NCBI RefSeq assembly: GCF_900167395.1
Contig: NZ_FUWK01000004.1
Span: 30,001-62,000 of the forward strand
Length of the DNA stretch: 32,000 bases
Reading direction: 5' to 3'
Origin: Nitrosomonas europaea
Lineage (GTDB): Bacteria; Pseudomonadota; Gammaproteobacteria; Burkholderiales; Nitrosomonadaceae
The notes beneath the pieces were generated by a model. That model did not search any database, was not told where the DNA came from, and saw nothing but the letters and a program-made list of their open reading frames with translations. Shown piece by piece: positions 5,232-24,308 of this stretch. The number at the start of each line of letters is the position of its first letter. The first letter of the stretch is position 1. The position numbers and the translations under genes are program-made.

Positions 5232-5951
5232 ATGAAGTTTATTGTGTTTATTCTGTTAGCGATAGGATCGGGCCTAGTCAGTGCGCAGGAACCGGTATTG
5301 TCTTCAGTTCCCGATACGCTGGAACAGCGTGTAAAACCCTGTACGATCTGTCATGGTGACGAAGACAAAGCAGGGCGGGACGCGTATTACCCGCGGATTG
5401 CAGGCAAACCTGCCGGTTATCTGTTTAATCAGTTACGCAATTTCCGCGATGGGCGGCGCTACTACCAGGCCATGGCAATTTTGCTGGAAAACCTTTCGGA
5501 TGAATATCTGCTCGAAATTGCTCATTATTTCTCTTCCCTGAAATACCCTTATCCAGAACCGGCAGCGAATACGCTTTCACCTGAGGAGATACAGGCGGTA
5601 GAAACGCTGGTTCATTCGGGTGACCCTGAACGAGATATTCCTGCATGCGGTGCTTGCCATGGAAAAGCCCTGATGGGTGTAGAACCATTTATTCCCAGTC
5701 TGCTCGGCCTGCCTCATGCCTATGTAGCAGCACAATTCGGCGGTTGGCGTAATGGCGGGATCATGCGGGGACAAACACCGGATTGCATGTCTGAAATTGC
5801 CAAAAAACTATCCCAGGAGGAAGTCAATGCGCTGACTGTGTGGCTGCCTGCTCATCCGGTAACGGGTGAACCCGCAGAAGCAGAAACACTACCCCCGGAA
5901 CTTGCTCAACGTTGTCAGACTATTTTATCCGGAGAGGGTTTTACCCGATGA
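5232..5951 (+). CDS. Dihaem cytochrome c (c4-like), periplasmic
   Basis: Signal peptide MKFIVFILLAIGSGLVSAQ and two CxxCH motifs (CTICH, CGACH). Confidence 0.85.
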   Translation: MKFIVFILLAIGSGLVSAQEPVLSSVPDTLEQRVKPCTICHGDEDKAGRDAYYPRIAGKPAGYLFNQLRNFRDGRRYYQAMAILLENLSDEYLLEIAHYFSSLKYPYPEPAANTLSPEEIQAVETLVHSGDPERDIPACGACHGKALMGVEPFIPSLLGLPHAYVAAQFGGWRNGGIMRGQTPDCMSEIAKKLSQEEVNALTVWLPAHPVTGEPAEAETLPPELAQRCQTILSGEGFTR

Positions 5952-8664: not shown

Positions 8665-11600
8665 ATGACGAAATCAGCCAGACTCTTTTCCTTATGCTGC
8701 CTCATCGCAGTCAGCCTGTTTCACAGCATCAATGTATCAGCCAATGATCAAACTTTTCATCACCGGATGGAGGTAATTCTTTCACCTGATAATTCAGAAC
8801 TCCAGGTGAAAGATCAGATTCAGGTACCGAAAAATAATCTGAATCAGACTGCAGCCACTCGCCTGGAATTCAGTTTGCATGCCGGTTTGTCGATTATGGC
8901 AAACAAAGATGTGGATATCGTTGCTCAGACGGTAAATGAAGCCGATGTACACGCTGGCCCGGTACCATTGAAGCGATATATGGTAACCCTGCCTGCAGGG
9001 CAGAATACTTTTACTCTCACTTTCAGCGGGCGTATTCACCATGCTGTGCAGGACCCCAGTCTGGAATATGCACGCAGTTTCAGCTACTCGCCAGGATTGA
9101 TTTCCGCAGAAGGAGTATTTCTTGCCAATTCTACCGCCTGGTACCCTCAATTTGATGAAGGTATGGTGTCATTTAATCTGGATGTTCGGCTGCCAGCCGA
9201 TTGGGATGTTGTCAGTCAGGGCAGTCTGATACAGGAGCACATTACCGAAACCACTCGACGCGTTACTTGGGAAGAGAAAAAACCTCAGGATGATATTTAT
9301 CTGGTAGCCGGGCGTTATCAGCGTTATCAGCAATCCACCGGGCCGGTGGCAGCTTATGTTTATCTGCGCAGTCCGGATAAAGCGCTGGCGCAGAAATATC
9401 TGGATGCAACTGGACAATACATCGCTATGTACAGCAAGCTGATCGGGCCTTACCCCTATCCGAAATTTGCATTGGTCGAAAACTTCTGGGAAACCGGTTA
9501 CGGCATGCCGTCATTCACCCTGCTGGGACCAAAAGTCGTGCGTTTTCCGTTCATTCTGCACACTTCTTATCCACACGAGATTTTGCACAATTATTGGGGA
9601 AATGGCGTATTCGTCGATTACAGCAAAGGAAATTGGTCGGAAGGGTTGACAGCCTATCTGGCAGATCATCTCGTCAGCGAGCAGGGAGGTAAAGGTGAAG
9701 AATACCGCCGTGATGTGCTGCAGAAATACACGGATTTCGTGAACCAGGAAAAAGATTTTCCGATTGCCCGGTTCACTTCGCGTCACAGCCCCAGTTCAGA
9801 AGCGGTTGGCTATGGCAAAACCATGATGATGTTCCACATGCTGCGGCAGGAACTGGAAGATAAGGATTTCATCAGCGTATTGCGCAGCTTTTATAAACAA
9901 TACCAGTTCAAACAGGCAACTTTTGAAGATTTGCAAACGACTTTCAATACCCTTACCGGCAGAGATTTTTCTCCGTTCTTTCAGCAGTGGATATATCAGA
10001 GCGGTGCTCCCGATATCTCACTGGAAAGTGCGCAGGCTGAGCCCTGGAATCGGGGTTATCGGCTCAAAGCAATCATCAGGCAAACTCAGCCGGGTACACC
10101 TTATCAATTGACTGTGCCGATTGCGGTTCATCTGGAAGGAGAAACCGCTGCCTGGCAAACGCAGATTAAAATCGATCAGCCGGACAATATCATTGAACTG
10201 GATTTACCGGCACGCCCGGTACGTATCGATATCGATCCGCAGTTCGATGTATTCCGGCGCCTGGACAGCCGTGAAATTCCTGCCGCCTTGTCGCAAGGTT
10301 TCGGTGCGGAAAAACCATTACTGATTCTACCGGCCAATACCGGCAACGCGCAATTGTCGCAGGCGTATCAACTACTTGCTTCCACCTGGCAAAAAACTCA
10401 ATCCGGTTCGCTAAAAATCATCCGGGATGATCAATTGGAAGCGCTACCTGCAGATCGTACAGTCTGGATTCTGGGCTGGCAGAATAAATTCAGCAATCAG
10501 ATAATCGATACACTGTCAGAGCACGGCGTCGCCAGAAAAGAGGGTGAATTGCAGCTGGGAGGGCAGATCTATCAACAGGATAAACATGCCATCGTATTGA
10601 CGGCCCGTCAGTCGGCTAATCCTGCTTCAACGTTGCTGTGGGTGGCATCGGATCAGCCTGCAGCAATCACAGAGCTGGCCAGAAAACTGCCGCATTACCG
10701 CAAATACAGTTATCTGGTATTTGAAGATAGCGGTAAAAGTGAAGAACTGAACAACATCAATAAGGGCCAGTGGCCGGTAACTCGCTCTCCTCTGACACAA
10801 CTGGTCAAACAGAAGGATGATGCTTCATTTACCTCCAGTCACACCGGCACTCTGGCACCCCGTCATGCACTGGCAGAACTGCCACCGCTATTTTCCGAAA
10901 ACCGCATGCTGGAGGATATTACCTTGCTGGCCAGTGAGGTATTCAAGGGGCGCGAGCTGGGCAGCCCGGAACTGGACAAGGCAGCAGAATACATCGCGCA
11001 ACAGTTTCAGCAGGCGGGATTGCAGCCGGGCGGGGAAAGCGGGAGCTATTTTCAGATCTGGCAGCAGGATGTAGGGGCGCCAAAAGGAAAAATCACCTTG
11101 CGCAACGTCATTGGAATCCTGCCCGGCACCAATCCACAACTGGCAGAGCAGAGCCTGGTGATCGGTGCGCATTACGATCATCTTGGACTGGGCTGGCCGG
11201 ATGTGCGCGCAGCCAACCGTGGCAAGATTCACTATGGTGCAGATGATAATGCCAGCGGGGTAGCTGTCATGCTGGAATTGGCACGCCAGATCGCCACCCG
11301 GTGGCAACCGCAGCGCACCATCATTTTTGCTGCTTTTACCGGTGAAGAATCCGGGTTGCTGGGGTCAACCCATTATCTTGGCAATCCATCCGGTTATCCC
11401 ACCGAAAAAATCATCACCATGCTGAATCTGGATACAGTCGGCCGGCTCGGTAACAACCCAGTCACCGTATTTGGTACAGGTACAGCAAGCGAGCTGGTAC
11501 ATGTATTCCGTGGTGCCGGTTTTGTCACGGGCATTCCTGTCAATACAGTAGCGAATGATTTTGGTTCCGGTGACCAGACTGCCTTTATCAAGGCCGGGAT

Positions 11601-12081
11601 ACCGGCAGTTCAATTCTTTGGCAGCGCACACGAGGATTATCATGCACCCGGCGATACGGCCGATAAAATCGATGCTGCCGGGTTGATCAAAGTGGCTGCC
11701 ATCCTCAAGGAAGGTGCTGAGTATCTGGCCAACCGCCTTGAACCGCTGACGGTTACACTGGATGCTGGTAACCGATCATCCGACATGCCTCAGGCAACGG
11801 CCCAAACGAGAGATAAACGTAAAATCATCATCGGTACAGTCCCGGATTTTTCCTGGCAAGGAGAGGGTGTGCGTGTGGACGATATACTTCCTAATTCTCC
11901 AGCACAGCAGGCACAGTTACAGCAAGGCGACATCCTGATTCGGCTGGCAGGGCAATCCATTACCGATTTGAAGTCATACGCTGATATTCTGCGGGTGTTG
12001 AAAGCAGGAGAGAAAATCGAACTACAGTTCCGACGAGGAAAAGATATCAAATCGATTGAAATCGTACCAGTTGAGCGCTAA
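8665..12081 (+). CDS. Secreted multidomain metallopeptidase: M1 (gluzincin) domain + M28 aminopeptidase domain + C-terminal PDZ
   Basis: Signal peptide; HEILH...WSEGLTAY (M1 HExxH plus distal E); [25 protein letters not shown] and HAPGD (M28 metal ligands); a C-terminal PDZ-like [13 protein letters not shown]...GDILIRLAG. Confidence 0.85.
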
Positions 12082-12548: not shown

Positions 12549-13541
12549 TCAGATTTTTACTTCGTTTGCCGGTATTTCTCCAGCTACGAATCGTTTTATA
12601 TTAGCGAATGTCGTTAGTGCAATCTGATCAAGTGCTTCTTGCGTGAAAAATCCCTGGTGTGCAGTGATCAGCACATTCGGAAAAGTCATGAGCCGTGCGA
12701 TGGTGTCATCAAGAATGATCTGCTCGGAAAGATTCTGAAAAAACAGATCTGCTTCCTGCTCATAAACGTCGATACCAAGATAGCCAATCTTGCCTGATTT
12801 CAACCCGGCGATCACGGCTTTGGTATCGATCAGTCCACCCCGGCCGGTATTGATCAGCATGACACCTGTTTTCATTTGTGCAATGACGCTGCTGTCGATG
12901 AGATAGCGAGTTTCTTCATTGAGCGGACAATGCAGTGAGAGAATGTCGCACCGGGAAAAAAGCTCATTCATGGGAACATACGGAATACCCATTTTCTCGA
13001 TCTCCAGCTTCTTTACCGGGTCACAGGCGAGGATGTTGCAGCCCAGACCATGCATGATCCGGCAAAAAACTTCACCGATATGACCGGTACCAATCACACC
13101 AACCGTTTTTTTGTGAAGATCGAAGCCGAGCAGCCCGTTCAGCGAAAAATTCTGTTCACGAACACGGTTATAAGCTTTGTGTGTTTTGCGGTTCAACGTC
13201 ATGATCATTGCCAGCGTGTGTTCTGCCACGGCATGAGGGGAGTAGGCCGGAACGCGCACCACTCTGATATTACAGGCATGAGCTGCTTTGATATCTACAT
13301 TGTTGAAGCCGGCACAGCGCAGGGCGATGAGCTGCACATTCAATTGAGAAAGTTGGTGAATAACAGCTTCATTAAGGTTGTCGTTGACGAAAACACAAAT
13401 TGCCTGGCTTCCGCTGGCCAGTGACACCGTATGCTCGGTCAGTTTTTCTTCCAGAAAAACGAGTTCAAATTGCGTATCGATATGATGTTTGAGGAAGGAT
13501 TCACGGTCATACGGCTGGGTGCTGAAAAAAGTGATTTTCAT
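12549..13541 (-). CDS. ldhA: D-lactate dehydrogenase (D-isomer 2-hydroxyacid dehydrogenase)
   Basis: Near full-length resemblance to E. coli LdhA (ALRCAGFNNVD, VVRVPAYSPHAVAEH, MTLNRK, GVIGTGHIG). MKITFFS at 13541 is the likely start, not 13568. Confidence 0.88.
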   Translation of the reverse strand: MKITFFSTQPYDRESFLKHHIDTQFELVFLEEKLTEHTVSLASGSQAICVFVNDNLNEAVIHQLSQLNVQLIALRCAGFNNVDIKAAHACNIRVVRVPAYSPHAVAEHTLAMIMTLNRKTHKAYNRVREQNFSLNGLLGFDLHKKTVGVIGTGHIGEVFCRIMHGLGCNILACDPVKKLEIEKMGIPYVPMNELFSRCDILSLHCPLNEETRYLIDSSVIAQMKTGVMLINTGRGGLIDTKAVIAGLKSGKIGYLGIDVYEQEADLFFQNLSEQIILDDTIARLMTFPNVLITAHQGFFTQEALDQIALTTFANIKRFVAGEIPANEVKI

Positions 13542-13623
13542 TGAATGTTTTCCAGAGAGAAGCAGCAACGCTCAAGGAAAATATCGGGAAATATCCGGAA
13601 AGTCAAACGAGATAAAAGAAACC

Positions 13624-14766
13624 ATGCGTTGGGATATTTTCTGCCATGTGGTCGATAACTATGGCGACATTGGTATTTGCTGGCGCCTGGCGCGTCAACT
13701 GGTTACGGAATTTGACATTTCTGTACGCATGCTGGTAGACGATTTAGGGGCGATGCAACGCATTTGCCCGGCAATCGACCCTCGTCTGGCAGTTCAGAAT
13801 ATCCGGGGAGTGGAGATTCTGCACTGGGTTGAACCGTTCGCTGATCTCGTGCCGGCAGATGTGGTGATCGAGGCATTCGGGTGTGAATTACCGCCACGTT
13901 ATATAGCCGCAATGGCTGCTGCTTCACCCCGGTTTTCGGAGCCTGAAGGAAAAACAGATCGGATATGGATCAATCTGGAATACTTATCAGCCGAGCAATG
14001 GGTGGAAGGTTGTCACGGACTGGCTTCGCCACATCCCAGCTTACCGCTGATCAAATATTTCTTTTTCCCGGGATTTACTGCAGCAACTGGAGGGTTGCTG
14101 CGGGAAGCGGAACTGTTTACGCTGCGCGATGCATCACGCACTGATCCGGCAGGGTTGTGGCGCGAATTGGGTATCACCAATCCTGCTGCGGATGAGGCCA
14201 CCGTTTCGCTGTTTTGCTATGACAGTGCTCCGATCAGTGATTTGCTGGAAGCGTGGGCTGGCTCTATTTCACCTGTTCGATGTCTGTTACCGGAAGGCAC
14301 AGCTTCAGCATCAGCAGCCAGCTGGGCAGGAATATCACGCCTTGCGGCAGGAGATAGCATCCAACGCGGTAATCTGACTTTGCATGTCATCCCTTTTATG
14401 TCGCAGGAAAACTATGACCATTTATTGTGGGCGTGTGACTGCAATTTTGTACGCGGCGAGGATTCCTTCGTGCGTGCGCAGTGGGCAGTGCGGCCGATCG
14501 TCTGGCAAATTTATCCACAACAAGAAAACGTGCATCTGATCAAACTGGAAGCTTTCCTGGATCTCTATTGTCAGGAGCTGATCGAACCGGCAGCTGATGC
14601 AGTGCGCGCTTTTCATCGAAGTTGGAATAATAACGAACAACCGGATTGGAACTGTTTCTGGAAATATCGGGATGTGCTGCAACAGCATGCCATGGCTTGG
14701 GCTGAACGGCTTGCACAAATCCCGAATCTGGCTTCCAGTCTGGTAAATTTTTGCAGGAATCGGTGA
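13624..14766 (+). CDS. earP: EF-P arginine-32 rhamnosyltransferase EarP
   Basis: MRWDIFCHVVDNYGDIGICWRLARQL is the characteristic EarP (DUF2331) N-terminus. It lies immediately upstream of an Arg32-type efp. The ATG at 13624 is codon 46 of the track ORF. Confidence 0.85.
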   Translation: MRWDIFCHVVDNYGDIGICWRLARQLVTEFDISVRMLVDDLGAMQRICPAIDPRLAVQNIRGVEILHWVEPFADLVPADVVIEAFGCELPPRYIAAMAAASPRFSEPEGKTDRIWINLEYLSAEQWVEGCHGLASPHPSLPLIKYFFFPGFTAATGGLLREAELFTLRDASRTDPAGLWRELGITNPAADEATVSLFCYDSAPISDLLEAWAGSISPVRCLLPEGTASASAASWAGISRLAAGDSIQRGNLTLHVIPFMSQENYDHLLWACDCNFVRGEDSFVRAQWAVRPIVWQIYPQQENVHLIKLEAFLDLYCQELIEPAADAVRAFHRSWNNNEQPDWNCFWKYRDVLQQHAMAWAERLAQIPNLASSLVNFCRNR

Positions 14767-14839: not shown

Positions 14840-15397
14840 ATGAAAACTGCTCAAGAACTTCGTGTAGGCAATGTGTTCATGCTCGGCAAAGACCCCATGG
14901 TCGTGCTGAAAACCGAATTTACCAAATCGGGACGCAATTCCTCAGTGGTAAAAATGAAGTACAAGAATTTGCTGACTGAATCGCCTGGTGAAGCTGTATA
15001 CAAAGCGGATGATAAATTCGATATAGTAGTGCTGGATAAGAAAGAGGTGAACTATTCCTATTTTGCCAGCCCGATGTACGTATTCATGGATGCTGAATTC
15101 AATCAGTATGAGGTTGAAGAGGAAACCATGAGTGATGCACTCAGCTTTCTGGAAGATGGTATGCCCTGCGAGGTTGTGTTCTACAACGATAAACCTATCT
15201 CAGTTGAATTGCCTAATACGGTTGTACGCGAGATCATTTACACCGAGCCCGCAATCAAAGGTGATACCACAGGCAAAGTACTGAAACCCGCAAAAATTCC
15301 TACTGGTTTTGAACTGGCGGTACCCTTGTTTTGTGAAATTGGCGACAAGATCGAAATCGATACCCGGACACGTGAATACCGCAGTCGCGTCAAGTAA
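14840..15397 (+). CDS. efp: Translation elongation factor P, Arg32 type
   Basis: Full-length EF-P. The loop KSGRNSS places Arg at position 32, the EarP substrate. Confidence 0.95.
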
Positions 15398-15512: not shown

Positions 15513-15540
15513 ATTTCGTATAATGTATAAGCAATAAAAT
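15513..15540 (+). other. dif-like hybrid recombination site 1 (putative attL): intact XerC arm and core, degenerate XerD arm
   Basis: ATTTCGTATAA-TGTATA-AGCAATAAAAT. The first 17 nt are identical to the full dif at 17203; the XerD arm matches at 5 of 11 positions. Confidence 0.65.
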
Positions 15541-15776
15541 CAATGGCTTGCACAATTACAAAATTTCCAGGAGAAAAATTCAGAGGAAAATTAGCGCGTG
15601 AAAAATTTGCATTCATGATTTAAAAAATAGTTGATCGTTGAAAAAATATCCAGAAAAAGAGGCAGCAAGAATTTCACGCCAACCCCAAAAGGGGGGGCGG
15701 CGACGGATAAACGCGGCCAAGTGCTTGCCGCATCCGTCTACGCCTAAAAACCATAAACCCCGTTTTGCAGGGTGGT

Positions 15777-15840
15777 GGATGGGGGGCGAGCGGCAGCAAT
15801 CCCGAACCGTTACGGCGTAACCCGCGACGGAAAAAGCTGC
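15777..15840 (+). repeat. Intergenic motif, copy A (homologous to 17836-17902)
   Basis: The core CGTTACGGCGTAACCCGCGACGGAAAAAGCTGC (15808-15840) aligns with 17871-17902 at about 28 of 33 columns (hand alignment). The upstream G6-containing stretch also aligns. Confidence 0.6.
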
Positions 15841-16015
15841 AACCCACGATTACTGATGACCCGTAATCGCGGGAGTCGCTTATTTCCTGCTGGCCACAGA
15901 AAGGGCTTAAAACGCGATTTAAGCGATTTTCATCATTCCAACGCCTTCGGGGTGCTGCTCGATCGCTCTATCGCTGCGCTCATCGCTTCTCGCCGCACCC
16001 AGAGGCACAAACCGT

Positions 16016-16582
16016 TCATGGTGTATCCCCCTGAATGACCTTGACCGGAACCGAAGAGATCTCCCCGCAGATCCGATCAACCATGGACGCAAGGAAATTG
16101 AGGTGGACAGGCGTAAACGCCATACCATCTGGGGAGAGCAGACGACCGTCATGACACATCCAGCCGCGCCACGCATTACCGGGTAACGCAAACGGTACCA
16201 GTGCTGTTTCCCCAGAACCGACACGACGACGGTATTCCTTATCCCACATGCGGGCTTTGTCGATCGTCCAGTTAAGCGGGTAGAGATCGCCAGGAGTAAA
16301 GGTTTTGCCTTCAGGAGAAATCAATTTGTTACGTAGTAACATCCAGTTTTTCCACTCTTTACCGGGTAGTTCATAGCCCGTCAGGATACGAAGAAGCCGG
16401 AACGCGGCATACGGCATGTGAACCAAGCCGCGTTCCCAGTACTGGACAGTACGCAGTGAAACCCGAAGCATATCGGCAACCTGTTGCCGCGTAAGACCCG
16501 CCAGCAGCCTTGTTTCACGGATGGTGTCATAGTTCACAGGCTTGTACGGCTTGCGTTTGTAGTGGCGTTTACGCATGGCCAT
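16016..16582 (-). CDS. HTH regulator, DUF3653-like phage protein
   Basis: An AGGGGG SD lies before the ATG at 16582. HTH LTRQQVADMLRVSLRTVQYWERG is followed by two W-x2-W...L-x-SP-x-G-x2-FTP repeats. It is homologous to the ORF at 17402-17836. Confidence 0.7.
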   Translation of the reverse strand: MAMRKRHYKRKPYKPVNYDTIRETRLLAGLTRQQVADMLRVSLRTVQYWERGLVHMPYAAFRLLRILTGYELPGKEWKNWMLLRNKLISPEGKTFTPGDLYPLNWTIDKARMWDKEYRRRVGSGETALVPFALPGNAWRGWMCHDGRLLSPDGMAFTPVHLNFLASMVDRICGEISSVPVKVIQGDTP

Positions 16583-16787
16583 CCCCCTTGTGAAACTTGA
16601 GGCGGAAACGATGAAAACCCGATTTACGCGGTGGTCGAATATCAAGAGACGTAATGCACCAGATGTTGTGAGAATCCTTGAATCCCTTGATCCGACCTTC
16701 AGACAGCAATCGCCGAACACGCTGGGGAGTGATTCCATGAAAATTCGCAACATCCTGAACGGTGAAATATGAAATTTGAATATGCAT
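16569..16787 (-). CDS. Small excisionase/MerR-type HTH DNA-binding protein
   Basis: YFTVQDVANFHGITPQRVRRLLSEGRIKGFK...W matches the excisionase-family HTH pattern. It overlaps the next gene by 14 nt. Confidence 0.6.
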   Translation of the reverse strand: MHIQISYFTVQDVANFHGITPQRVRRLLSEGRIKGFKDSHNIWCITSLDIRPPRKSGFHRFRLKFHKGDGHA

Positions 16788-16914
16788 CTAACCCCCCGAA
16801 ATCCGTTGAAAATATGCTGTTTGAATAATTTCAAGGCTAAAAACCTGAAAACCCAGTCTGGGAGCGGGTTTGGAGTGCTTTAAAACCGGAGAAAAATGGA
16901 CAGAATTGGCAGTA

Positions 16915-16941
16915 ACTTTACGTGTTACTGGCACGTAAAGT
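16915..16941. repeat. 10-bp-stem hairpin, copy A (same hairpin as 22811-22837)
   Basis: ACTTTACGTG-TTACTGG-CACGTAAAGT. With two flanking bases, the 29-nt TAACTTTACGTGTTACTGGCACGTAAAGT occurs exactly twice in the window. A T-run follows on the + strand. Confidence 0.8.
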
Positions 16942-16947
16942 TTTTTC

Positions 16948-17157
16948 TCAATCGCTGTCCCGGTTAACGAAGTTCTCCAGGGAACCATACTCAAGTTTGA
17001 TTTCAAGCATGGCCAGCCGACACGGCAACCACAGGAAGAAATTGATCCAAAACTGCTTGAAACCAAGTCGTTCCATAGCCTTGATGAGCCAGGATGAAAA
17101 GGAACTGTTGATAAGCGCACAGAACAGGCCGCCATAGCGGTTTTTTTGATTTGACAT
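16948..17157 (-). CDS. Hypothetical small protein (69 aa)
   Basis: Strong AAGGAGG SD upstream of the ATG at 17157, and the ORF ends just before the conserved hairpin. The function is unknown, and alternative overlapping frames exist (16788-17135). Confidence 0.35.
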   Translation of the reverse strand: MSNQKNRYGGLFCALINSSFSSWLIKAMERLGFKQFWINFFLWLPCRLAMLEIKLEYGSLENFVNRDSD

Positions 17158-17202
17158 AATGCATTTCCTCCTTTGTTTTCGTACCGGCGGCACGAGCATT
17201 GT

Positions 17203-17230
17203 ATTTCGTATAATGTATATTATGTTAAAT
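17203..17230 (+). other. dif: Complete chromosomal dif site (XerC arm - core - XerD arm)
   Basis: ATTTCGTATAA-TGTATA-TTATGTTAAAT. The core and XerD arm are identical to the E. coli dif 28-mer GGTGCGCATAATGTATATTATGTTAAAT; the XerC arm matches at 7 of 11 positions. Confidence 0.85.
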
Positions 17231-17314
17231 AGAAGATGCAGAGAACGAAGGAAGAAATTCAGAAGGAAGGCAGATTACATCGCTGATCTAATCTATAGAT
17301 TGCTGACCCCTTTC
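17231..17314 (+). repeat. dif-flank module, copy at site 2 (homologous to 23625-23712)
   Basis: It shares AGGAAGGCAGATTA (identical 14-mer), CTGATCT, (A/T)AGATT and GCTG-CCC-TT-C blocks in the same order at nearly the same distance from the dif core (33 vs 34 nt). Confidence 0.65.
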
Positions 17315-17331
17315 GGACCATTAAGGCTCGC

Positions 17332-17383
17332 GTGCTGACAGTACCAGCACTTTTTGATACCCGCCACGCGCGGGTATTTTTTT
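17332..17383 (+). terminator. Two tandem hairpin plus T-run terminators
   Basis: GTGCTG/CAGCAC (17332-17350) followed by TTTTT, then ATACCCGC/GCGGGTAT (17356-17376) followed by TTTTTTT. Confidence 0.55.
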
Positions 17384-17401
17384 GTCCGGAGAAAAATAAA
17401 A

Positions 17402-17836
17402 ATGGATGATCTGATATACGGTATTAGCGTTGAAGTATTACAGGAAATCACAGGTGAAGAGCTGCGAGTGATCAAACAATGGAAGAAAGGCACGAGAAAG
17501 CCATCAGAATCGGCAATAAGGCTGATAAATCTATTTGTGCATGGCAAGGCATGTGCATTATTAGGAAATAGCTGGAATGGCTTCTATTTCAGAAATGGAA
17601 AATTATTTGTTCCTGAATGGCGTAATGGATTCTCGGCCGGGGAAATACGCACCCTGTTCTTTCGGTGTCAGCTGGTTGTGTATCTGGAAAGTGAGATCAG
17701 ATTATTAAAGGCAGAGCTGGAGCGCAGAAACCTTGACATCGAAGAGTTGGAAATAAAGGCAGACTTCTACAGGCGGCAAATCAGCACAGAGAGCAAGTTC
17801 GGGATGATGCTGGAAAGATGCTTCGGGGTTATGTAG
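17402..17836 (+). CDS. DUF3653-like phage regulator
   Basis: LRVIKQWKKGTRKPSESAIRLI...W-x-GF...NGKLFVPE...FSAGEI aligns with the 16016-16582 protein. It has a coiled-coil-like C-terminus. ATG at 17402 is preferred. Confidence 0.6.
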   Translation: MDDLIYGISVEVLQEITGEELRVIKQWKKGTRKPSESAIRLINLFVHGKACALLGNSWNGFYFRNGKLFVPEWRNGFSAGEIRTLFFRCQLVVYLESEIRLLKAELERRNLDIEELEIKADFYRRQISTESKFGMMLERCFGVM

Positions 17837-17902
17837 GAATACGGGGGGTGTGATAGCGCGTCAGGTCAGGCGTTACGGTGAGACCCGCGACGAAAAATCT
17901 GC
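17836..17902 (+). repeat. Intergenic motif, copy B (homologous to 15777-15840)
   Basis: CGTTACGGTGAGACCCGCGACGAAAAATCTGC (17871-17902) plus the upstream ACGGGGGG stretch. It lies in the non-coding gap downstream of zot. Confidence 0.6.
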
Positions 17903-18074
17903 GTTGCGCCGGTACCCTAAAACCAACACCGGGTCCGGCGGCCTCGATATTTTCTGCTGGACAAATGAGAACCGCCAGAGGGCGAACCAACTGGCGGCTA
18001 TGATCATCATTTTTGAATCGGGCAATGGAGGTACAAATCACCCGGATATGGTATCGGCGGCAATCCGCAGGACT

Positions 18075-19061
18075 TTAGACTTTTGTCTCTTGACCAGGCC
18101 AACCGCTCGACACTGCCTTGCGGCAGGTCTCCGGAGGGACGACAAGGCGCTCCGCGCTCTTGCCGTAGCAGATGCATTTGGCTTGCGTTGCCACGCAAGC
18201 CCCTACTTTAGACCAATCAATCTGATCAGATACAAGGGCAAGAGTAACGGGACGGGCAACAGTTGTGACGGTTGTTACTGGGGCCGATGTTAATTTTTGC
18301 TGGGATAAATGAGGGTCATCCGTCTTTTGTTCATCCTTGACAACTTTTGGAGATTCTGATGATTTTGAATCAAGGAAACGATCCTTGAAGGTGAAACCCG
18401 TATAGATAAGTGCGAAGAAAGCAATCGGTACAACGTAAGCCATGAGAGGTTTACGACGTTTCTGCGTAATATGCATGCTAGCTGATCTGTAGAGTCCGTA
18501 AGCTTCTTTCGGTAGCTCGTAACGCTGTGATACTGCCTTGAGTTTGCTACTTGTGGCCCTGACTGTTGCGCAGTATTCAGGCCATTCGTAACGCTTCCTG
18601 CCATGCCAGTCTGAAAGCATATGAATGTGCTTATCGACTACTGCCAGCACATTCTTATGTATCAACTGAGGTGCCTGAGTAATCAGGACAAATTCCAACC
18701 CGTGATGGCGATGTTTGGTTAAGTATTTGATGTCTTCTCCGGGCTCCCTGGAACCAGAGGCTGGCCAAAGATACTGAACCTCATCAATTACGATAAGTGC
18801 ACCCTCAGTAATGTTCTGCAACCGCGAGGGTTTTTCATCGTCAGGAATCGGAATACCAGATGGGTTTTCAACCTCGACAAGTTCCCTGTCAGCCCATCTT
18901 TTCACCTGGCTATAACTCAGGGAAATTGCCGGGAGTTTGAGTTCAGGAATCCCGGCGGTGTAAACAACTCTATCGGCTTCAACAGCGGGCTTGATGATGT
19001 TCCAGACAGCAAAAATTGTTTTACCCGCACCCGGTGCGGCAGTAATTAAAGTAATGCTCAT
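18075..19061 (-). CDS. Zot/pI-like filamentous phage assembly ATPase
   Basis: N-terminal Walker A AAPGAGKT, Walker B-like LIVIDEVQ, one TM segment (AYVVPIAFFALIYTGFTF) and a C-terminal periplasmic part. There is a 4-nt ATGA overlap with the upstream gene. Confidence 0.85.
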   Translation of the reverse strand: MSITLITAAPGAGKTIFAVWNIIKPAVEADRVVYTAGIPELKLPAISLSYSQVKRWADRELVEVENPSGIPIPDDEKPSRLQNITEGALIVIDEVQYLWPASGSREPGEDIKYLTKHRHHGLEFVLITQAPQLIHKNVLAVVDKHIHMLSDWHGRKRYEWPEYCATVRATSSKLKAVSQRYELPKEAYGLYRSASMHITQKRRKPLMAYVVPIAFFALIYTGFTFKDRFLDSKSSESPKVVKDEQKTDDPHLSQQKLTSAPVTTVTTVARPVTLALVSDQIDWSKVGACVATQAKCICYGKSAERLVVPPETCRKAVSSGWPGQETKV

Positions 19062-19348
19062 TTGTTGAGAACACCAAGTGTTTTACGCTGTACCTGAAAA
19101 GCAACCCGAAAAGTGATAGCGGCTGTAACGATACCAAGGCACTGACCAAGGCCAGCAAGGTTAGCAAGATTCGCAACGGAAGATGGCAACCCGAAGTATT
19201 GAGTTTGCATGTAAGTCAGTGCAGCACCTACGCTGACCGTGAGGCCCGCATAGCTGATAACCCCGATACCCAGCGATGTAAGTACACGTACAGCAAGCGG
19301 CCCGGCAGCAGCTTCGAGAAATGCGCCCAGCGGGATAAGTATGTTCAT
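19058..19348 (-). CDS. pVI-like minor virion protein (DUF2523-like)
   Basis: 96-aa polytopic hydrophobic protein directly upstream of zot, the conserved inovirus position. Confidence 0.65.
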   Translation of the reverse strand: MNILIPLGAFLEAAAGPLAVRVLTSLGIGVISYAGLTVSVGAALTYMQTQYFGLPSSVANLANLAGLGQCLGIVTAAITFRVAFQVQRKTLGVLNK

Positions 19349-19405
19349 GTTGTTAATCTCATCAAAATATTAAAAGCATGTTCTTCTGCTAGTCGTAAGT
19401 GGTAG

Positions 19406-20731
19406 TTAAGTGCCAGCGCGAGATATGCCGGCAACAATAAACATCGCGGCAACAGATGCAAAAAGCACAAAGATCGGCCGCAACTGCACAGCTGTATCAC
19501 AGGCTGGTTGCCAACTGACAGGAAAAGTCACGCCCTGAACGGTAAGTATTTCATCCGGCGGACATGTCCCCTCCCCCCAGGATTCCGGAGTCTGCAAATT
19601 AAACTCTGGTTGTTCTTCTTCAAGTTGAGCTGGCGGAACATCATCAAACGATACGGTAGTTTCATCGGTGCCAGTTTTGGGCGGCGAGTTATCAGAGGTT
19701 GAAGTCTGAGTGTTGGTGATTTCGTTGTTTTCGTTGTAAGTCGTGATCGTGGTAACTTCGGTCACGTTATAAGTAACGTTATTGGTTGTGCTGGTATCTT
19801 CGACCTTGACAGATGTGGTTGCAACTTGTGTGCCGGTGATGTTGCCCTGGGCATCTTTGGTTTGTGTGGATGTCTGGGCAATCTGCTGGATTACGGGGGC
19901 AGATTGGGTTGAGGCCAAAACCGGGACGGGGGCATCAGAGTTATAGAGGGCTTCGGCGGTTTGTTGGGGTTGGGCATTGAGCTTGGTTTCAGCGTCTGTC
20001 CAGTGCGTTTCAGTAACAGGCACGGGGGCATTGTTGTGTACGCACTCGTTGCCAACTTTGGTATATCCAGTAAAGCAATTTCCACTGTTGACTTTGACGA
20101 TTGAGTAATTAGGGGGCGCTGTTTCTGTTGGCGGATTGTTAGTCTTGTCGGAGTAGATGCAATAAGAGGTACCGCCAGAGACTTCTACACGTAAGAACGT
20201 CAGATTATTCGGGGCGAAATGGACTGCCGCGCGGTAATCAAAACTTTTACAAAGAAGGTCTGCTGTAACGTGAGTCAAGCTAACATAAAACGGATGACGC
20301 CAGTAACCCGTTTCGGTGGTTACTGGGTAACCAGCCGGCATATCAGGGGCATATTCAATCTCACCCGATTGGGAATTTCGGCAGATATCAGTAAGGTCAC
20401 AAACGGTATCATAGAGAGCAATTGCGGTACCAATTGCCGGTAGAGTTTTTAGAAACCGGGTTGCGGCTTTTCCGACTTTTGAGGGTTCAACCGGAAAGGT
20501 TTTTTCAACCGGGACGAGAAATTGACCTTTTGAGGTGTTGACGGGGATATCTTTGGATATGCCGGCATTGGGATATGCGAGCGAGGTTCCACCGCCGGGG
20601 CGTTGTATATGTACCTCACCATCAATGACTTTAACGTTCGGATACGGATCGTGAAATTCGTAGGCGGAGACGACGGGAACGTAGAAAACGCCGAGTATGG
20701 CGCAGACGATCAGCTTCCGAACAGTATCCAT
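19406..20731 (-). CDS. pIII-like receptor-binding/adsorption protein
   Basis: Signal peptide, an N-terminal Cys-containing domain, a long Thr/Asn/Gln-rich low-complexity linker and a C-terminal TM anchor (IFVLFASVAAMFIVAGI). Its position is between the coat genes and the pVI-like gene. Confidence 0.7.
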   Translation of the reverse strand: MDTVRKLIVCAILGVFYVPVVSAYEFHDPYPNVKVIDGEVHIQRPGGGTSLAYPNAGISKDIPVNTSKGQFLVPVEKTFPVEPSKVGKAATRFLKTLPAIGTAIALYDTVCDLTDICRNSQSGEIEYAPDMPAGYPVTTETGYWRHPFYVSLTHVTADLLCKSFDYRAAVHFAPNNLTFLRVEVSGGTSYCIYSDKTNNPPTETAPPNYSIVKVNSGNCFTGYTKVGNECVHNNAPVPVTETHWTDAETKLNAQPQQTAEALYNSDAPVPVLASTQSAPVIQQIAQTSTQTKDAQGNITGTQVATTSVKVEDTSTTNNVTYNVTEVTTITTYNENNEITNTQTSTSDNSPPKTGTDETTVSFDDVPPAQLEEEQPEFNLQTPESWGEGTCPPDEILTVQGVTFPVSWQPACDTAVQLRPIFVLFASVAAMFIVAGISRAGT

Positions 20732-20784
20732 GTCGATCCCAATATAGCGAGCAAAACATAAAGAGCGTTTGGATCATCAAACAT
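20710..20784 (-). CDS. Candidate 24-aa hydrophobic peptide (g7/g9-like small coat protein)
   Basis: An AGGAG SD lies 6 nt before the ATG at 20784, which is 2 nt after the upstream stop. The peptide is MFDDPNALYVLLAILGSTWILFGS. It overlaps the start of the pIII-like gene and is below the ORF-track length cut-off. Confidence 0.3.
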   Translation of the reverse strand: MFDDPNALYVLLAILGSTWILFGS

Positions 20785-20786
20785 AA

Positions 20787-21101
20787 TCAACTCCTGATAA
20801 CTTCAGCGACTTTTTTAGCCATGTAAGCAACAACCCAAGCGCCCGCGATAAGCCAGGCTGCATCAATAGCATCATGCATTTGTGCGTTAGGGTCACAAGC
20901 GATCTGTTGCGGTATGTAATCAGTGCTTACTGGTACGGGTATTAAGCCAGTATTCGTACGTGTGATAACGATCTTGTCGGTAGACGGGACACACCGGATT
21001 GTGTATGCCCCGTCCGGGGAAACAGTCGGGCAATTACCGGCAATCTCTTGATGGAGGTCAAGAGTTGTGGAATAGCATTTGCCTTGGTAGTAATTGCCCA
21101 T
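20787..21101 (-). CDS. Hypothetical minor virion protein
   Basis: 104 aa with a C-terminal TM plus basic tail (AAWLIAGAWVVAYMAKKV). It lies between the major coat and pIII-like genes. Confidence 0.5.
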   Translation of the reverse strand: MGNYYQGKCYSTTLDLHQEIAGNCPTVSPDGAYTIRCVPSTDKIVITRTNTGLIPVPVSTDYIPQQIACDPNAQMHDAIDAAWLIAGAWVVAYMAKKVAEVIRS

Positions 21102-21113
21102 TTGATCAGCCTC

Positions 21114-21317
21114 TTAGAATACTCTGGTGATCCATTTCCAAACTTTGATGCCAACAACGATGGTAATTACCAAAGCGCCAGCAGCAGCAATATCAGCTTT
21201 AGCCGCTGTAATAGCCGTTGTCACATCTTCGGGCAAATCGGCACGTGCAGATGCGGCGAAAAGTACCAGCGGGGATGCGTAAGCAGCATTGGTCAGGCGC
21301 TGTTTAAAGTTTTTCAT
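21114..21317 (-). CDS. Inovirus major coat protein (pVIII-like)
   Basis: Signal peptide ...FAASARA. The mature ~41-aa protein has an acidic N-terminus (DLPED), a hydrophobic core and a basic C-terminus (KVWKWITRVF). A GGAG SD is present. Confidence 0.8.
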   Translation of the reverse strand: MKNFKQRLTNAAYASPLVLFAASARADLPEDVTTAITAAKADIAAAGALVITIVVGIKVWKWITRVF

Positions 21318-21396
21318 TTGTTACTCCTATTTAAAGTTAAAGAAAGGCGGCATGCGTAATACACACCCCCCAACCCCGCAGGCTGGGGGCTGGGTA

Positions 21397-21702
21397 CTAC
21401 CGGGCAGGAGATGCAGCAGCCGGGACGGGTCGAAGAGCATTGATCACCGTCTTGGGGCCTTTATTGCTGGATAAGGTCAGAAACTCGACTTCGCAAACCA
21501 GTGGGAAATCGTGATTCATTAAGGCTTTGGCTTCTTTGGATGATGCGAGCGGATAAGCTGTAGTCGAAGACCCTTTGGCAGTGCCTTTTCTGAAATCAAG
21601 CAGATGTTCGATAAACACCTTGCCTGAATCAATATGTTTTCCATCATCAAGGGTTCCGTCAAAAAACGTGATTCCGGTCACTTTTACTTTTTCAATTGCC
21701 AT
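21397..21702 (-). CDS. Putative ssDNA-binding protein (pV-like), assigned by position only
   Basis: 101-aa soluble ORF between Rep and the coat gene, the usual pV slot. I recognised no diagnostic motif. Confidence 0.45.
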   Translation of the reverse strand: MAIEKVKVTGITFFDGTLDDGKHIDSGKVFIEHLLDFRKGTAKGSSTTAYPLASSKEAKALMNHDFPLVCEVEFLTLSSNKGPKTVINALRPVPAAASPAR

Positions 21703-21766
21703 TTGTTTTTCCTTACGCCTGTTGAATGCCTGTTCCGGATGTGGCGGATAAACCCGGGGCAGAAAA

Positions 21767-22774
21767 TTAACCGTAGTTCTGGATGTACCAGTCGGGAGCC
21801 GTGAGTGGCTTGAGTTCTACAACGCGAACCCTTGAGGGAAGATGGTGAACGTTGTTCGGGATGGAGATATCAACGCCGTAGGCGAGTAATTCAGTGCGGT
21901 GACGATAGCGAGTAGCCCTACTGATATCTAACGGAAGCCCTAATTTCCAACTGGCATAAGTCGATCGAAGATGCTTCGGAAGATCGTTAAAGTTTTCGTA
22001 TTTCATGTCCTCTAACCTCTGAAGTTGTGTGCGGTCGGCGTATATCTGATTGAGATTGTCTTGTGTGATTGCGCCTAGATAAGCAAGGTTGTTTTGTAAA
22101 AGGAAGCGGGATTTAAGGGTGAATTCTTCCCGAAGAATGCCTTCGGTTTTGCAGTAGTCGATGACGTCATCAGAGACGTGTGAGCCGGATTTCTTGGAAC
22201 GATGCTTTTCCAGTTCTTGATATTTGGCGTAGAGCTTGCCGTAGACGTATTTAGACCCCCTGCCGTATTCAACCGTCCCGGAATCAGGAGACAGTGAACC
22301 TTTTTGACGGCCAACATGCTGGCCTGCCATGTGGCAAAGGACGGCATGCATGGATTCTTTGGAGCCAGTGCTGTAATTACAGGTCAGATCGATGCGGGAG
22401 ACACGAGCGCCTGACCATGACCAGCCGGTATCAGCGAATTTATAGAGCTTGCCGGATGTGAACGGCGGCAGACCCAGAAGCGACAGCAGATCGTTAATGC
22501 GGGCAATCGTTGTCGGCCAATCATATCCAAAAAGATTGTCACGACGGCCATAGCGGGAAATGTTACCGGTGAATTCAACCGTATTGCCATCGCAGCGAAC
22601 CTGAACGCGGGAATCATACGAACCTTCAATGATGCAGCGCACATCGGTTGAATATTCGATCTCACCATCCGCATCAACTTTGAGAACTTTTCCATCATTC
22701 AGAACCGGCAGACCCCCGCCAAAATACTCCTGACGGATGGTCACGTAGTCGATGAAAACCGGGGAAGTTTCCAT
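21767..22774 (-). CDS. Rolling-circle replication initiator (gene II/X, RstA-like, Rep_trans family)
   Basis: The IDYVTIRQ N-terminal motif, the size and a KLYAKYQE motif resemble Rep_trans proteins of CTX/Cf-type inoviruses. The ATG at 22774 lies 2 nt after the upstream stop; the track start at 22789 is a TTG. Confidence 0.7.
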   Translation of the reverse strand: METSPVFIDYVTIRQEYFGGGLPVLNDGKVLKVDADGEIEYSTDVRCIIEGSYDSRVQVRCDGNTVEFTGNISRYGRRDNLFGYDWPTTIARINDLLSLLGLPPFTSGKLYKFADTGWSWSGARVSRIDLTCNYSTGSKESMHAVLCHMAGQHVGRQKGSLSPDSGTVEYGRGSKYVYGKLYAKYQELEKHRSKKSGSHVSDDVIDYCKTEGILREEFTLKSRFLLQNNLAYLGAITQDNLNQIYADRTQLQRLEDMKYENFNDLPKHLRSTYASWKLGLPLDISRATRYRHRTELLAYGVDISIPNNVHHLPSRVRVVELKPLTAPDWYIQNYG

Positions 22775-22776
22775 GG

Positions 22777-23115
22777 CTAAAATGAGCAAAAAGTCTCACC
22801 GGTGAGACTAACTTTACGTGTTACTGGCACGTAAAGTATTTTTTGCCCTTCGCTTCCCCTTCCCTCACTCCTCGCTGGCGCTCGTCGTTCGGTCTGGTTG
22901 CGCTCGGTTTGATAGTAGAAATCGAGAACGGTTAGAAGGTTGAAAATCTGGCCGGGTGGCAGCGAACTGGTGTCGTCGAGTGCGGAGAGATAGCAGCGGG
23001 CGGCGAAGTGGTTGCCGGGTTTGGTGATATTGCGGAGTAGAAAGCCAAAAATACTGTACTGCAATGACAATTGATTAAGTGCCGGATATGGCGTAATACC
23101 TGATTCTGTAAGCAT
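22777..23115 (-). CDS. Hypothetical protein (112 aa), first gene of the leftward operon
   Basis: Strong GGAGG SD 5 nt before the ATG at 23115, and the stop is coupled to the rep ATG. Its 3' part is encoded by the two palindromes, so the true extent is uncertain. Confidence 0.4.
   Translation of the reverse strand: MLTESGITPYPALNQLSLQYSIFGFLLRNITKPGNHFAARCYLSALDDTSSLPPGQIFNLLTVLDFYYQTERNQTERRAPARSEGRGSEGQKILYVPVTRKVSLTGETFCSF
22792..22837. repeat. Perfect 18-nt palindrome plus the conserved 10-bp-stem hairpin, immediately upstream of rep
   Basis: AGTCTCACCGGTGAGACT (22792-22809) is followed by ACTTTACGTG-TTACTGG-CACGTAAAGT (22811-22837). The latter is the same hairpin as at 16915-16941. Confidence 0.8.
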
Positions 23116-23141
23116 TTTTCCTCCACATTGAATGACCCTGT

Positions 23142-23170
23142 TTGACTTGTGGAATTAAGAACCCTAGAAT
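23142..23170 (+). promoter_or_regulatory. Sigma70-like promoter for the repressor gene
   Basis: TTGACT, a 17-nt spacer, then TAGAAT. It overlaps face-to-face with a leftward TTGATG-16 nt-TATTCT candidate (23193-23166). Confidence 0.45.
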
Positions 23171-23243
23171 ATTGGGGTAATTTCACGCATCAAATTTAAT
23201 GCAGATATTAAGCGCATCAAAACCAATGCGTCAAGGAGAAAAA

Positions 23244-23621
23244 ATGAACGAACTTAAAAAATATATAGAAACCGGAACAGAAAAGGCCGGAACACAGAAA
23301 GAACTAGCAAAAATTATAGGAATCGCTGACGCAAACTTGAGAACAGCTAAATCAGGAATCAGAGGATTACCAATTGAGGTTTGTATACAGCTAGCAAATT
23401 ACCTCAAAGAAGACGAATTGAAAGTAATACTGGCAAGCGAAATGGTCACTGCAAAAGATGAGAAGAAGAGAAAAATATTAGAAAGCTGCATGCAAAAGTC
23501 AAAAGAAAGAATAAGCGCAATGATTGTAGGCGGCTTAGTTATTTCAATGCTAACCCTCTCCCCGCTTGAGTCTGCAGAAGCAAAAGTCGTTGAAAATCAG
23601 GATTCTATGTATATTATGTAA
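23244..23621 (+). CDS. XRE/Cro-C1-type HTH repressor candidate with a hydrophobic C-terminal segment
   Basis: An AAGGAG SD lies before the ATG at 23244. HTH TQKELAKIIGIADANLRTAKSG. It is divergent from the rep operon and visibly AT-rich. The stop codon lies inside the dif-like site. Confidence 0.65.
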   Translation: MNELKKYIETGTEKAGTQKELAKIIGIADANLRTAKSGIRGLPIEVCIQLANYLKEDELKVILASEMVTAKDEKKRKILESCMQKSKERISAMIVGGLVISMLTLSPLESAEAKVVENQDSMYIM

Positions 23622-23624
23622 AAT
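23597..23624 (+). other. dif-like hybrid recombination site 3 (putative attR): degenerate XerC arm, intact core, near-perfect XerD arm
   Basis: TCAGGATTCTA-TGTATA-TTATGTAAAAT. The XerD arm matches site 2 at 10 of 11 positions; the XerC arm matches at 2 of 11. Confidence 0.6.
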
Positions 23625-23712
23625 TAATTGCAAGAAATGCTATAGACGCTATAGAAAGAGGAAGGCAGATTATCTTTCTGATCTGCTTTACAGATTATTG
23701 CTGGCCCTTTTC
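23625..23712 (+). repeat. dif-flank module, copy at site 3 (homologous to 17231-17314)
   Basis: Same ordered blocks as copy 2, including the identical AGGAAGGCAGATTA at 23659-23672. Confidence 0.65.
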
Positions 23713-23816
23713 AAATCACTTGAATCAGAACTGCGTGGATATTATTGTCTGTTGCATGGCCTTTGTGGCATTCTGCTTATATCAAATGAAACGGGGGAAA
23801 ATTCGAGGAGTTGACA

Positions 23817-24308
23817 ATGAACTATTATACTTTTCTGGAAAGTCCTGTGGATCGACTGTTACTCACGAGTGATGGTGAGTTTCTTACAGGCGTGTATATG
23901 GAAATAGAGATACAGAAACTGCTGCCTCGCATGACAGATGACTGGCGGCAGGATGCCGCCCCTTTCGCAGAGGCGATTGCTCAGTTGAATGCTTATTTCG
24001 CGGGGGAACTGATTCAGTTTGATCTGCCCATGAAAGCGACTGGCACACCATTTCAGGAAGCGGTTTGGCAATCACTTAGCACTATTCCCTATGGTGAGAC
24101 TGTCAGTTATAAAAATATCGCAGAACGCCTGCACTTACCCAAGGCCGCACGTGCAGTGGGTATGGCCAATGGTCAGAATCCCATTTCGATCATTATCCCC
24201 TGTCATCGTGTTATCGGTGCCAATGGCAAGCTGACAGGTTATGGGGGGGGAATTCATCGTAAACAGTGGCTGCTGGCACATGAAGACAAGCAAACTTCTT
24301 TTGCCTGA
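23817..24308 (+). CDS. ogt: Methylated-DNA--protein-cysteine methyltransferase
   Basis: PCHRVIG active site and a GAGGAG SD 6 nt before the ATG at 23817 (the track start is a TTG at 23811). Confidence 0.9.

Follow-up and report, generated by a model that had tools for sequence, protein, structure and literature searches.

We analyzed a 32,000-nucleotide stretch of the Nitrosomonas europaea chromosome (hereafter the window; contig NZ_FUWK01000004.1, positions 30,001 to 62,000), which corresponds to strain ATCC 19718 (20,558 of 20,558 bases identical to the reverse strand of AL954747.1). Between the genes efp, coding for elongation factor P (EF-P), and ogt, the window contains three sequences resembling dif, the chromosome dimer-resolution site used by the XerC and XerD recombinases. 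These sites delimit a 1.69-kb mini-element (element 1) with a gene for a protein resembling the Xer activation factor XafT, and what appears to be a filamentous prophage (element 2). Features of the locus are collected in Table 1, where each site is written as XerC arm, core, and XerD arm.

The three 28-mers with a common TGTATA core, reported by a first-pass annotation of the sequence, are all present, in direct orientation on the + strand. A 17-mer made of the XerC arm and core had two matches in the window, both without mismatches, while ~0.09 were expected at ≤3 mismatches and two were reached in no shuffle. The 17-mer made of core and XerD arm also matched twice (with 0 and 1 mismatch; ~0.10 expected), and the full 28-mer matched once, against 0.00 expected. 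The sequence of site 2 is exactly the dif of N. europaea ATCC 19718 from the genome-wide prediction of Carnoy and Roten, which lies 9,691 bp from the GC-skew shift point (PMC2731167). Cumulative GC skew within the window peaks at ~25.5-26 kb, in agreement with the published position of dif near the skew shift. By this published work, the expectations that site 2 would be the best dif of the replicon and that the locus would lie at the skew-defined terminus thus both held, as did the claim that the interval has no integrase: Pfam scans of all sizeable open reading frames (ORFs) between efp and ogt detected neither integrase nor transposase domains.

Table 1. Features of the efp-ogt interval and its surroundings (window coordinates; E values are from the searches indicated)
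Feature	Position	Strand	Evidence or remark
earP (EF-P arginine rhamnosyltransferase)	13489-14766		5' of efp; Pfam annotation of conspecific loci
efp (elongation factor P), chromosomal neighbor on the left	14840..15397	+	185-aa ORF; Pfam EFP_N/EFP/Elong-fact-P_C
Site 1, attL of element 1	15513..15540	+	ATTTCGTATAA-TGTATA-AGCAATAAAAT
Element 1, 1.69-kb mini-element (putative integrative element exploiting Xer)	15541..17202		Precise presence/absence between dif-type sites in conspecific strains
22-nt motif CGTTACGGCGTAACCCGCGACG	15808..15829	+	Also in element 2 (17871-17897) and L086 phage; candidate cis site
xafT-like gene, 186 aa, HTH_XRE and two DUF3653 repeats	16016..16576	-	Pfam DUF3653 E=5.6e-30; HTH_31/HTH_3
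29-nt palindrome AACTTTACGTG-TTACTGG-CACGTAAAGTT	16914..16942		97% match to palindrome 5' of element 2 replication gene
Small ORF, 69 aa, strong ribosome-binding site	16947..17156	-	Called in conspecific annotations; no Pfam match
Site 2, the only complete dif	17203..17230	+	ATTTCGTATAA-TGTATA-TTATGTTAAAT
Element 2, putative inovirus prophage	17231..23596	-	Structural and replication genes on -; repressor and DUF3653 genes on +, at the two ends
DUF3653 (XafT-like) gene, 144 aa, adjoins attP	17402..17836	+	Pfam DUF3653 E=3.9e-5, above cut-off
Zot/pI-type assembly ATPase	18075..19061	-	Pfam Zot E=1.4e-24; PHROG 197 E=1.8e-57
DUF2523 minor coat protein (pVI position)	19058..19348	-	Pfam DUF2523 E=1.4e-24
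441-aa protein in pIII (receptor-binding) position	19406..20731	-	Signal peptide and C-terminal anchor in sequence; PHROG 13221 E=2.8e-11
Major coat protein	21114..21317	-	Pfam Phage_Coat_B E=4.2e-18
101-aa protein in the slot of the single-stranded-DNA-binding protein (function from position only)	21397..21702	-	PHROG 4994 E=2.7e-23, function not annotated
Rolling-circle replication initiator (G2P/pII type)	21767..22789	-	Pfam Phage_CRI, G2P_X_C; PHROG 702 E=3e-63
Two hairpins immediately 5' of replication gene	22795..22842		First is the palindrome common with element 1
Repressor-like helix-turn-helix gene	23199..23621	+	Pfam HTH_3 below cut-off; PHROG 638 "transcriptional regulator"
Site 3, attR of element 2	23597..23624	+	TCAGGATTCTA-TGTATA-TTATGTAAAAT
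ogt (O6-methylguanine-DNA methyltransferase), chromosomal neighbor on the right	23811..24308	+	Pfam DNA_binding_1 E=1e-36, Methyltransf_1N

The decisive evidence came from ten conspecific loci (L081-L090) that encode an identical EF-P protein. All four occupancy states of the site were found among them: empty, element 1 alone, an element 2-type phage alone, and both. In three strains (L084; L087, accession CP054389.1; and L090) the site is empty, and the left flank, ATTTCGTATAA-TGTATA-TTATGTAAAAT, the right flank, and ogt follow one another; the flanks of this single dif are the left flank of site 1 and the right flank of site 3. Four strains (L081; L082, accession CP157069.1; L083; and L089) contain site 1, element 1, and then the XerC arm and core followed by TTATGTAAAAT. 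In L086, a mosaic variant of element 2 is present alone, between a site with the XerC arm followed by TGTATA-TTATGTTAAAT and a site reading TCAGGATTCTA-TGTGTA-TTATGTAAAAT, and in L085 and L088 both elements are arranged as in the window. Site 1 was present in every strain bearing element 1 and in none of the strains with an empty site. At all ten loci the junction arms fit exactly the reciprocal swaps predicted for a crossover within dif. The empty allele, the separate presence and absence of each element, and the arm-swap junctions bear out the first-pass proposal that the succession of a site with degenerate XerD arm, a complete dif, and a site with degenerate XerC arm marks two elements at one dif. 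The AT-rich, low-complexity character of dif arms is the only thing that would favor the view that the three sites are similar by chance or paralogy and that the 8 kb are an ordinary island acquired by another mechanism. The shuffle statistics, the exact junctions at ten loci, and the lack of integrase and transposase genes oppose this view, and the conspecific alleles refute it; we assign it practically no weight.

Because the flank to the left of site 1 and the flank to the right of site 3 equal those of the empty site, the native XerD arm and the attachment sites of both free elements (attP) can be deduced. The native dif is ATTTCGTATAA-TGTATA-TTATGTAAAAT, the XerD arm of site 3 being the ancestral one. 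The deduced attP reads ATTTCGTATAA-TGTATA-AGCAATAAAAT for element 1 and TCAGGATTCTA-TGTATA-TTATGTTAAAT for element 2. Site 1 is composed of the chromosomal XerC arm and core joined to the degenerate XerD arm of element 1, AGCAATAAAAT, and site 3 of phage sequence without a XerC arm (TCAGGATTCTA), the core, and the chromosomal XerD arm TTATGTAAAAT. Site 2, presumably the active dimer-resolution site, is a chimera in which both arms are element-borne, the XerC arm coming from element 1 and the XerD arm from element 2. From the window alone, both the order of the integrations and the ancestral XerD arm had been considered undecidable. The first part of this judgment stands, as either order yields the same array structure; the second does not, as the conspecific strains decide for TTATGTAAAAT.

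Among the strains with element 1 alone, the metagenomic strain L083 matches the window at 100.000% identity in the flanks and at 99.94% in element 1; element 2 is cleanly missing, and a single site stands in its place. Such near-identity indicates that element 2 was very recently gained or lost. Element 1 is common to all of the closest strains, which suggests that it is the older resident in this lineage. Some attR sites show single-base changes in the central region (TGTGTA in L086, 17026-17053; TTTATA in L081, 12375-12402). The core bases of L086 track the XerC-side parent, a pattern that would be compatible with crossing over where XerD cleaves, although a single base is too little for a conclusion. 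The joined attP of metagenome contig L091, described below, reads TGTATA, unlike the TGTGTA of the L086 attR. Farther out, L082 (1-7700) lacks the peptidase region 5' of the dehydrogenase-earP-efp genes and has in its place a Tn3-family transposase, a resolvase, and an arsenic-resistance operon. EarP is the expected betaproteobacterial partner of efp.

Element 2 has a unit length of 6,394 bp, within the 6-9 kb size class of the Inoviridae, and contains the gene set of this family in canonical order (Zot/pI, G2P, Coat_B, pVI-like). By gene content it is a complete filamentous prophage, and it represents a new inovirus that has only distant relatives among those described. Identity to phage-database proteins does not exceed 34-39% (the replication protein to those of Vibrio cyclitrophicus phages, Zot to those of Ralstonia RSS phages), its DUF3653 protein had no match in the phage-database protein search, and no DNA match was found among 50,697 phage records. 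A search of IMG/VR with the replication protein returned one circular inovirus relative, 60% identical, which is without a dif-like site; both hairpins of element 2 are kept in it.

The attP of element 2 lies inside the 3' end of the repressor gene and beside the DUF3653 gene. Its core is identical to that of dif and its XerD arm is perfect, while at the XerC position 2/11 bases match (9/11 differ), which is the level of chance. In the prophage, the 3' end of the repressor ORF contains the phage half of site 3, and TTATGTAAAAT, the chromosomal XerD arm, contributes an in-frame TAA as stop codon. With the phage arm TTATGTTAAAT there is no stop at this point, so that in the joined form a 161-aa repressor ORF runs across attP (L091, 237-722). 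As the chromosomal arm supplies the TAA, integration shortens the repressor-like protein. The junction of the element 2 circle, with the right end joined to the left end, is predicted to read ...GAAAATCAGGATTCTA-TGTATA-TTATGTTAAAT-AGAAGATGC... An exact search found it in one metagenome contig, L091, which is either a circle or a tandem prophage, and none in IMG/VR. The idea that the repressor and DUF3653 genes form one operon across attP was dropped; terminator-like hairpins lie between them at 17332-17350 and 17356-17378. In the L086 phage, a 23-nt unit, GGAAAACCCGAGTAGATCCAGAC, is repeated about five times in tandem in the stretch that separates zot from the DUF3653 gene (~11400-11620); the window phage has no such repeats.

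Element 1 is of a different kind. Pfam scans detected no replication, coat, or assembly gene in it. Its attP has a perfect XerC arm, a core identical to that of dif, and a degenerate XerD arm that differs from the native arm at 5/11 positions; its circle junction is predicted to read ...GAGCATTGT-ATTTCGTATAA-TGTATA-AGCAATAAAAT-CAATGGC... In conspecific strains, element 1 variants are 82-94% identical, compared with 97.7-99.9% for the flanks, and the xafT-like ORF is intact in all copies. Isolate L096 (FOID01000004.1) carries a tandem element 1-element 1 array. The divergence pattern and the tandem copy fit a horizontal history of the element's own. The middle junction of the L096 array (3347-6635) reads ATTTCGTATAA-TGTATA-TCCAGAAAAAG, with the core joined to an internal position of element 1 (around window position 15650); the second copy is 119 bp shorter, which could reflect a secondary-site event or, alternatively, loss of sequence at the ATA microhomology.

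XafT, a DUF3653 protein, activates XerD without FtsK for the Vibrio cholerae satellite phage TLC, and DUF3653 genes cluster beside dif in many beta- and gammaproteobacteria (PMC6744903). The sole phage-database matches of the element 1 protein were Vibrio TLC xafT; it is 31% identical to TLC XafT (BLASTP, E=3e-15) and has the same layout of a helix-turn-helix domain and two repeats. The DUF3653 protein of element 2 is a weaker relative, homologous to both the element 1 protein and TLC XafT (E=3e-5). Since both elements encode such proteins, their place, judging by sequence, is with TLC and XafT and not with the CTX class. The first-pass annotation had named the mechanism of integrative elements exploiting Xer as known from CTX, VGJ, TLC, and others; the Xer-type arm swaps agree with this. 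The attP of TLC has a degenerate XerD arm, with 8/11 positions differing (PMC9226527). Homology to XafT together with an attP of TLC design points to XafT-driven, XerD-first recombination for element 1, and initiation by XerD would be the most economical reading for element 2.

Being a filamentous phage at dif, element 2 might be thought to integrate as CTX does, with its single-stranded DNA forming a forked hairpin in imitation of dif, and to be irreversibly locked in as a result; the double-stranded CTX prophage, too, shows only part of the site (PMC2731167). No second, inverted dif-like half-site was found in element 2 at ≤2 mismatches for either arm, and the junction has no such fold, which excludes a folded single-stranded attP of the CTX type. 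Moreover, the double-stranded attP has a dif-identical core and a perfect XerD arm, and the L083 allele is compatible with clean excision. We therefore regard CTX-like entry as very improbable. Nor does element 2 have the double-stranded attP with both arms that characterizes VGJ, given the 2/11 matches at the XerC position.

Taken together, these data lead us to conclude, with a probability of roughly 85%, that the 8.1 kb between efp and ogt are an array of a TLC-like mini-element and a filamentous phage, both of which exploit host XerCD to enter dif. In this model, two Xer-exploiting integrative elements would have inserted at the chromosomal dif, and each integration would have swapped arms, joining the chromosomal XerC arm to the degenerate XerD arm of element 1, the XerC arm of element 1 to the XerD arm of element 2, and the degenerate XerC position of element 2 to the chromosomal XerD arm. 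Host XerC and XerD would carry out the recombination, and the DUF3653 proteins would start it by activating XerD independently of FtsK.

Several points weigh against this conclusion. The roles of XerC, XerD, and the DUF3653 proteins in Nitrosomonas are predicted from homology, and an attP lacking the XerC arm falls outside the experimentally characterized classes. The L091 junction could stem from a tandem prophage instead of a circle, and the present-day mobility of element 1 is inferred from population patterns only. Several strains carry element 1, with its lack of replication and coat genes, without any phage. Finally, PSB15, the DUF3653 protein of Xanthomonas phage phiLf-UK, recognizes the packaging signal, and phiLf-UK integration does not require it (bioRxiv 10.1101/2024.03.19.585677); the small element 2 protein, which has no clear helix-turn-helix match in Pfam, could act like it.

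The last point can be extended to both elements: their DUF3653 proteins would then be regulators or binders of packaging signals, and XerCD would integrate the elements unaided, through a single strand exchange and subsequent replication. The DUF3653 domain of PSB15 is what binds its packaging hairpin (bioRxiv 10.1101/2024.03.19.585677), the element 2 protein contains a motif, LLG..WNGFYF..VPE, that resembles LTG/WAGFXF/TPE of PSB15, and a conserved motif containing ACCCGCG lies directly 3' of its gene. In contrast, the full XafT architecture is present in the element 1 protein, a direct homolog of TLC XafT that belongs to an element with nothing of its own to package. Each attP misses one arm, in TLC the case that requires XafT (PMC9226527), and the clustering of DUF3653 genes at dif in many species (PMC6744903) is also in favor of a role in integration. 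A purely packaging or regulatory function for the two proteins seems to us unlikely, and we retain XerD activation as their predicted role.

Beyond two short DNA motifs, element 1 has essentially nothing in common with the phages. The first, of 22 nt, sits 3' of the DUF3653 gene in both phage variants (element 2 and L086) and is a candidate packaging signal or minus-strand origin; its surroundings fold no better than shuffled sequence, and we do not claim a hairpin there. The second, a 29-nt palindrome, folds far better than shuffled sequence (z = -4.25). In element 2, the L086 phage, and the circular IMG/VR inovirus alike, it is located ~20-80 nt 5' of the replication gene, making it a candidate recognition site of the replication protein or origin. 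In the element 1 variants, the sequence around the two motifs is rich in indels, yet neither motif varies, and the L081 variant also bears the second phage hairpin.

More weakly, we infer from these motifs that element 1 may be a satellite, replicated and packaged in trans by element 2-type phages. In its fullest form, which we put forward only tentatively, element 1 would be a minimal satellite whose whole equipment is attP, two cis sites, and a XerD activator; the phage replication protein would be used via the palindrome, and packaging would occur via the 22-nt motif. The element may in turn supply a XafT that helps the phage without a XerC arm into dif, with XerD acting first or alone. If true, phage entry of this kind, XerD-first or XerD-alone, would mirror the XerC-only entry of CTX and VGJ.

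Alternatively, element 1 could be the decayed end of a larger dif-integrating phage that persists only as a passenger, with Xer or homologous recombination deleting or duplicating it from time to time. This would account for the missing replication, coat, and assembly genes, for the strains that have element 1 without a phage, and for the middle junction of L096, which lies at an internal position and is not a clean attP. It would also accord with the clear right-end relics found beside dif elsewhere in Nitrosomonas (L001, and L004 with a xafT-like gene and no detectable attL; see below). Yet a 1.5-1.7-kb unit with exact attL and attR recurs across strains, its variants are far more divergent than the flanks, which suggests that they were acquired or exchanged independently, every copy retains an intact xafT-like ORF, and the two non-coding motifs are perfectly conserved amid indels. 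On balance, we doubt that element 1 is such a remnant.

Sequences related to the element ends are also found beside dif in other Nitrosomonas. The flanks of site 2 (~60 bp to the left and ~100 bp to the right) are homologous to dif flanks of other species, which was considered as an argument against Xer integration; the conspecific empty sites overturned it. Such flanks in other genomes are best explained as remnants that earlier elements of these two families left behind. The ~100 bp to the right of site 2 (17231-17344, the phage left end) are homologous to the chromosome to the right of the native dif (23625-23730), and the same homology is seen in another Nitrosomonas species with an empty site (L002, 10777-10880). 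In the joined phage, roughly the last 37 codons of the repressor ORF lie in this stretch, which suggests that the chromosomal copies were left by earlier phages of this family. In Nitrosomonas sp. PE_soil1 (L001, 10555-11320), dif lies 145 bp after efp and is preceded by a ~65-bp copy of the element 1 right end, element 1 being missing; after dif comes the left end of an element 2-like phage, in which an insertion sequence interrupts the DUF3653 gene. With these remnants, the dif region resembles a graveyard of element ends. In Nitrosomonas sp. SJ624 (L004, 10560-11660), a xafT-like gene of 134 aa with one DUF3653 repeat lies between efp and dif; no attL-like site was detected there, and the gene may be an immobilized copy. 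In N. eutropha Nm24 (L003, 10600-11703), an element 2-like phage abuts efp in the opposite orientation, with a dif-like site, ATTTCGTATAA-TTTACA-TTCTCGTAAAT, within the phage repressor ORF; the contig ends 1 kb past this site. Apparently, phages of the element 2 family can exploit either dif half.

In the literature searched, whose coverage was incomplete, we found no published description of this array or of any Nitrosomonas filamentous phage. The main features all have precedents, and Xer-element arrays with XafT-like proteins have already been described in beta- and gammaproteobacteria. The present locus extends such arrays, studied mainly in pathogens (Vibrio, Xanthomonas, and Neisseria), to a model ammonia oxidizer, and it shows that the published N. 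europaea dif is a hybrid of two mobile elements and not the ancestral site. The four occupancy states are publicly available, one of them near-isogenic with the type strain, and constitute a natural experiment for Xer activation factors outside Vibrio. At 1.7 kb, element 1 would be close to the smallest package still able to integrate by this route, and the capabilities of XafT-like proteins could usefully be probed with the phage attP, which has no XerC arm. Specialists may be most interested in this minimal XafT-carrying element without a replication gene, in the phage attP, and in the unusually complete allele series.

Among known systems, TLC is the closest to element 1. Both have an attP with a canonical XerC arm, a dif-identical core, and a degenerate XerD arm (PMC9226527), and both encode a XafT-type protein with helix-turn-helix and two DUF3653 repeats (PMC6744903). 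Each leaves a complete dif on the attR side after integration and stands upstream of a filamentous prophage in an array, as TLC is found upstream of CTX. TLC is larger (~4.7 kb, compared with 1.7 kb) and has its own replication gene, Cri, whereas element 1 has no rolling-circle replication gene detectable by Pfam, only the palindrome common with the phage. The xafT-like gene of element 1 points to the degenerate XerD arm, 475 bp off, while xafT of TLC ends at the XerC arm. The host of element 1 is a betaproteobacterial nitrifier, and for this element XerD-first catalysis would hold by analogy.

Element 2 resembles the Vibrio phages of the "CTX-I" type, whose end genes are rstR and xafT and which form arrays at dif (PMC12715192), as well as phiRSS0 of Ralstonia and XacF1 of Xanthomonas, in which attP lies inside a regulator ORF that is split by integration (PMC4471427, PMC5666396). 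With these phages it shares the inovirus gene order, the lack of an integrase, the location at dif in arrays, and the reversed repressor and DUF3653 genes that form the ends of the prophage; with phiRSS0 and XacF1 it also shares an attP within the repressor ORF, truncated by integration. It differs from the known dif inoviruses in its distant proteins (at most 34-39% identity, no DNA match) and in an attP made of core and XerD arm only. The 15-bp attP of Cf/XacF1, in contrast, shares the XerC side with dif.

Like RS1 and the gonococcal genetic island, the elements described here are non-autonomous or integrase-less and reside at dif between a complete and a degenerate site. RS1, a satellite of the CTX phage, carries replication genes. 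The gonococcal island measures 57 kb (PMC2731167) and has no XafT-like gene (PMC6744903). VGJ, with its activator XafV, is similar to element 2 in being a filamentous phage with a small Xer-activator gene right beside attP; the VGJ attP has both arms and recombines XerC-first (bioRxiv 10.64898/2026.06.12.731946), whereas element 2 lacks the XerC arm and its protein matches DUF3653/XafT. Arrays at dif that include a satellite upstream of a phage have been reported, and Xer activators have been proposed to drive their orderly build-up (bioRxiv 10.64898/2026.06.12.731946).

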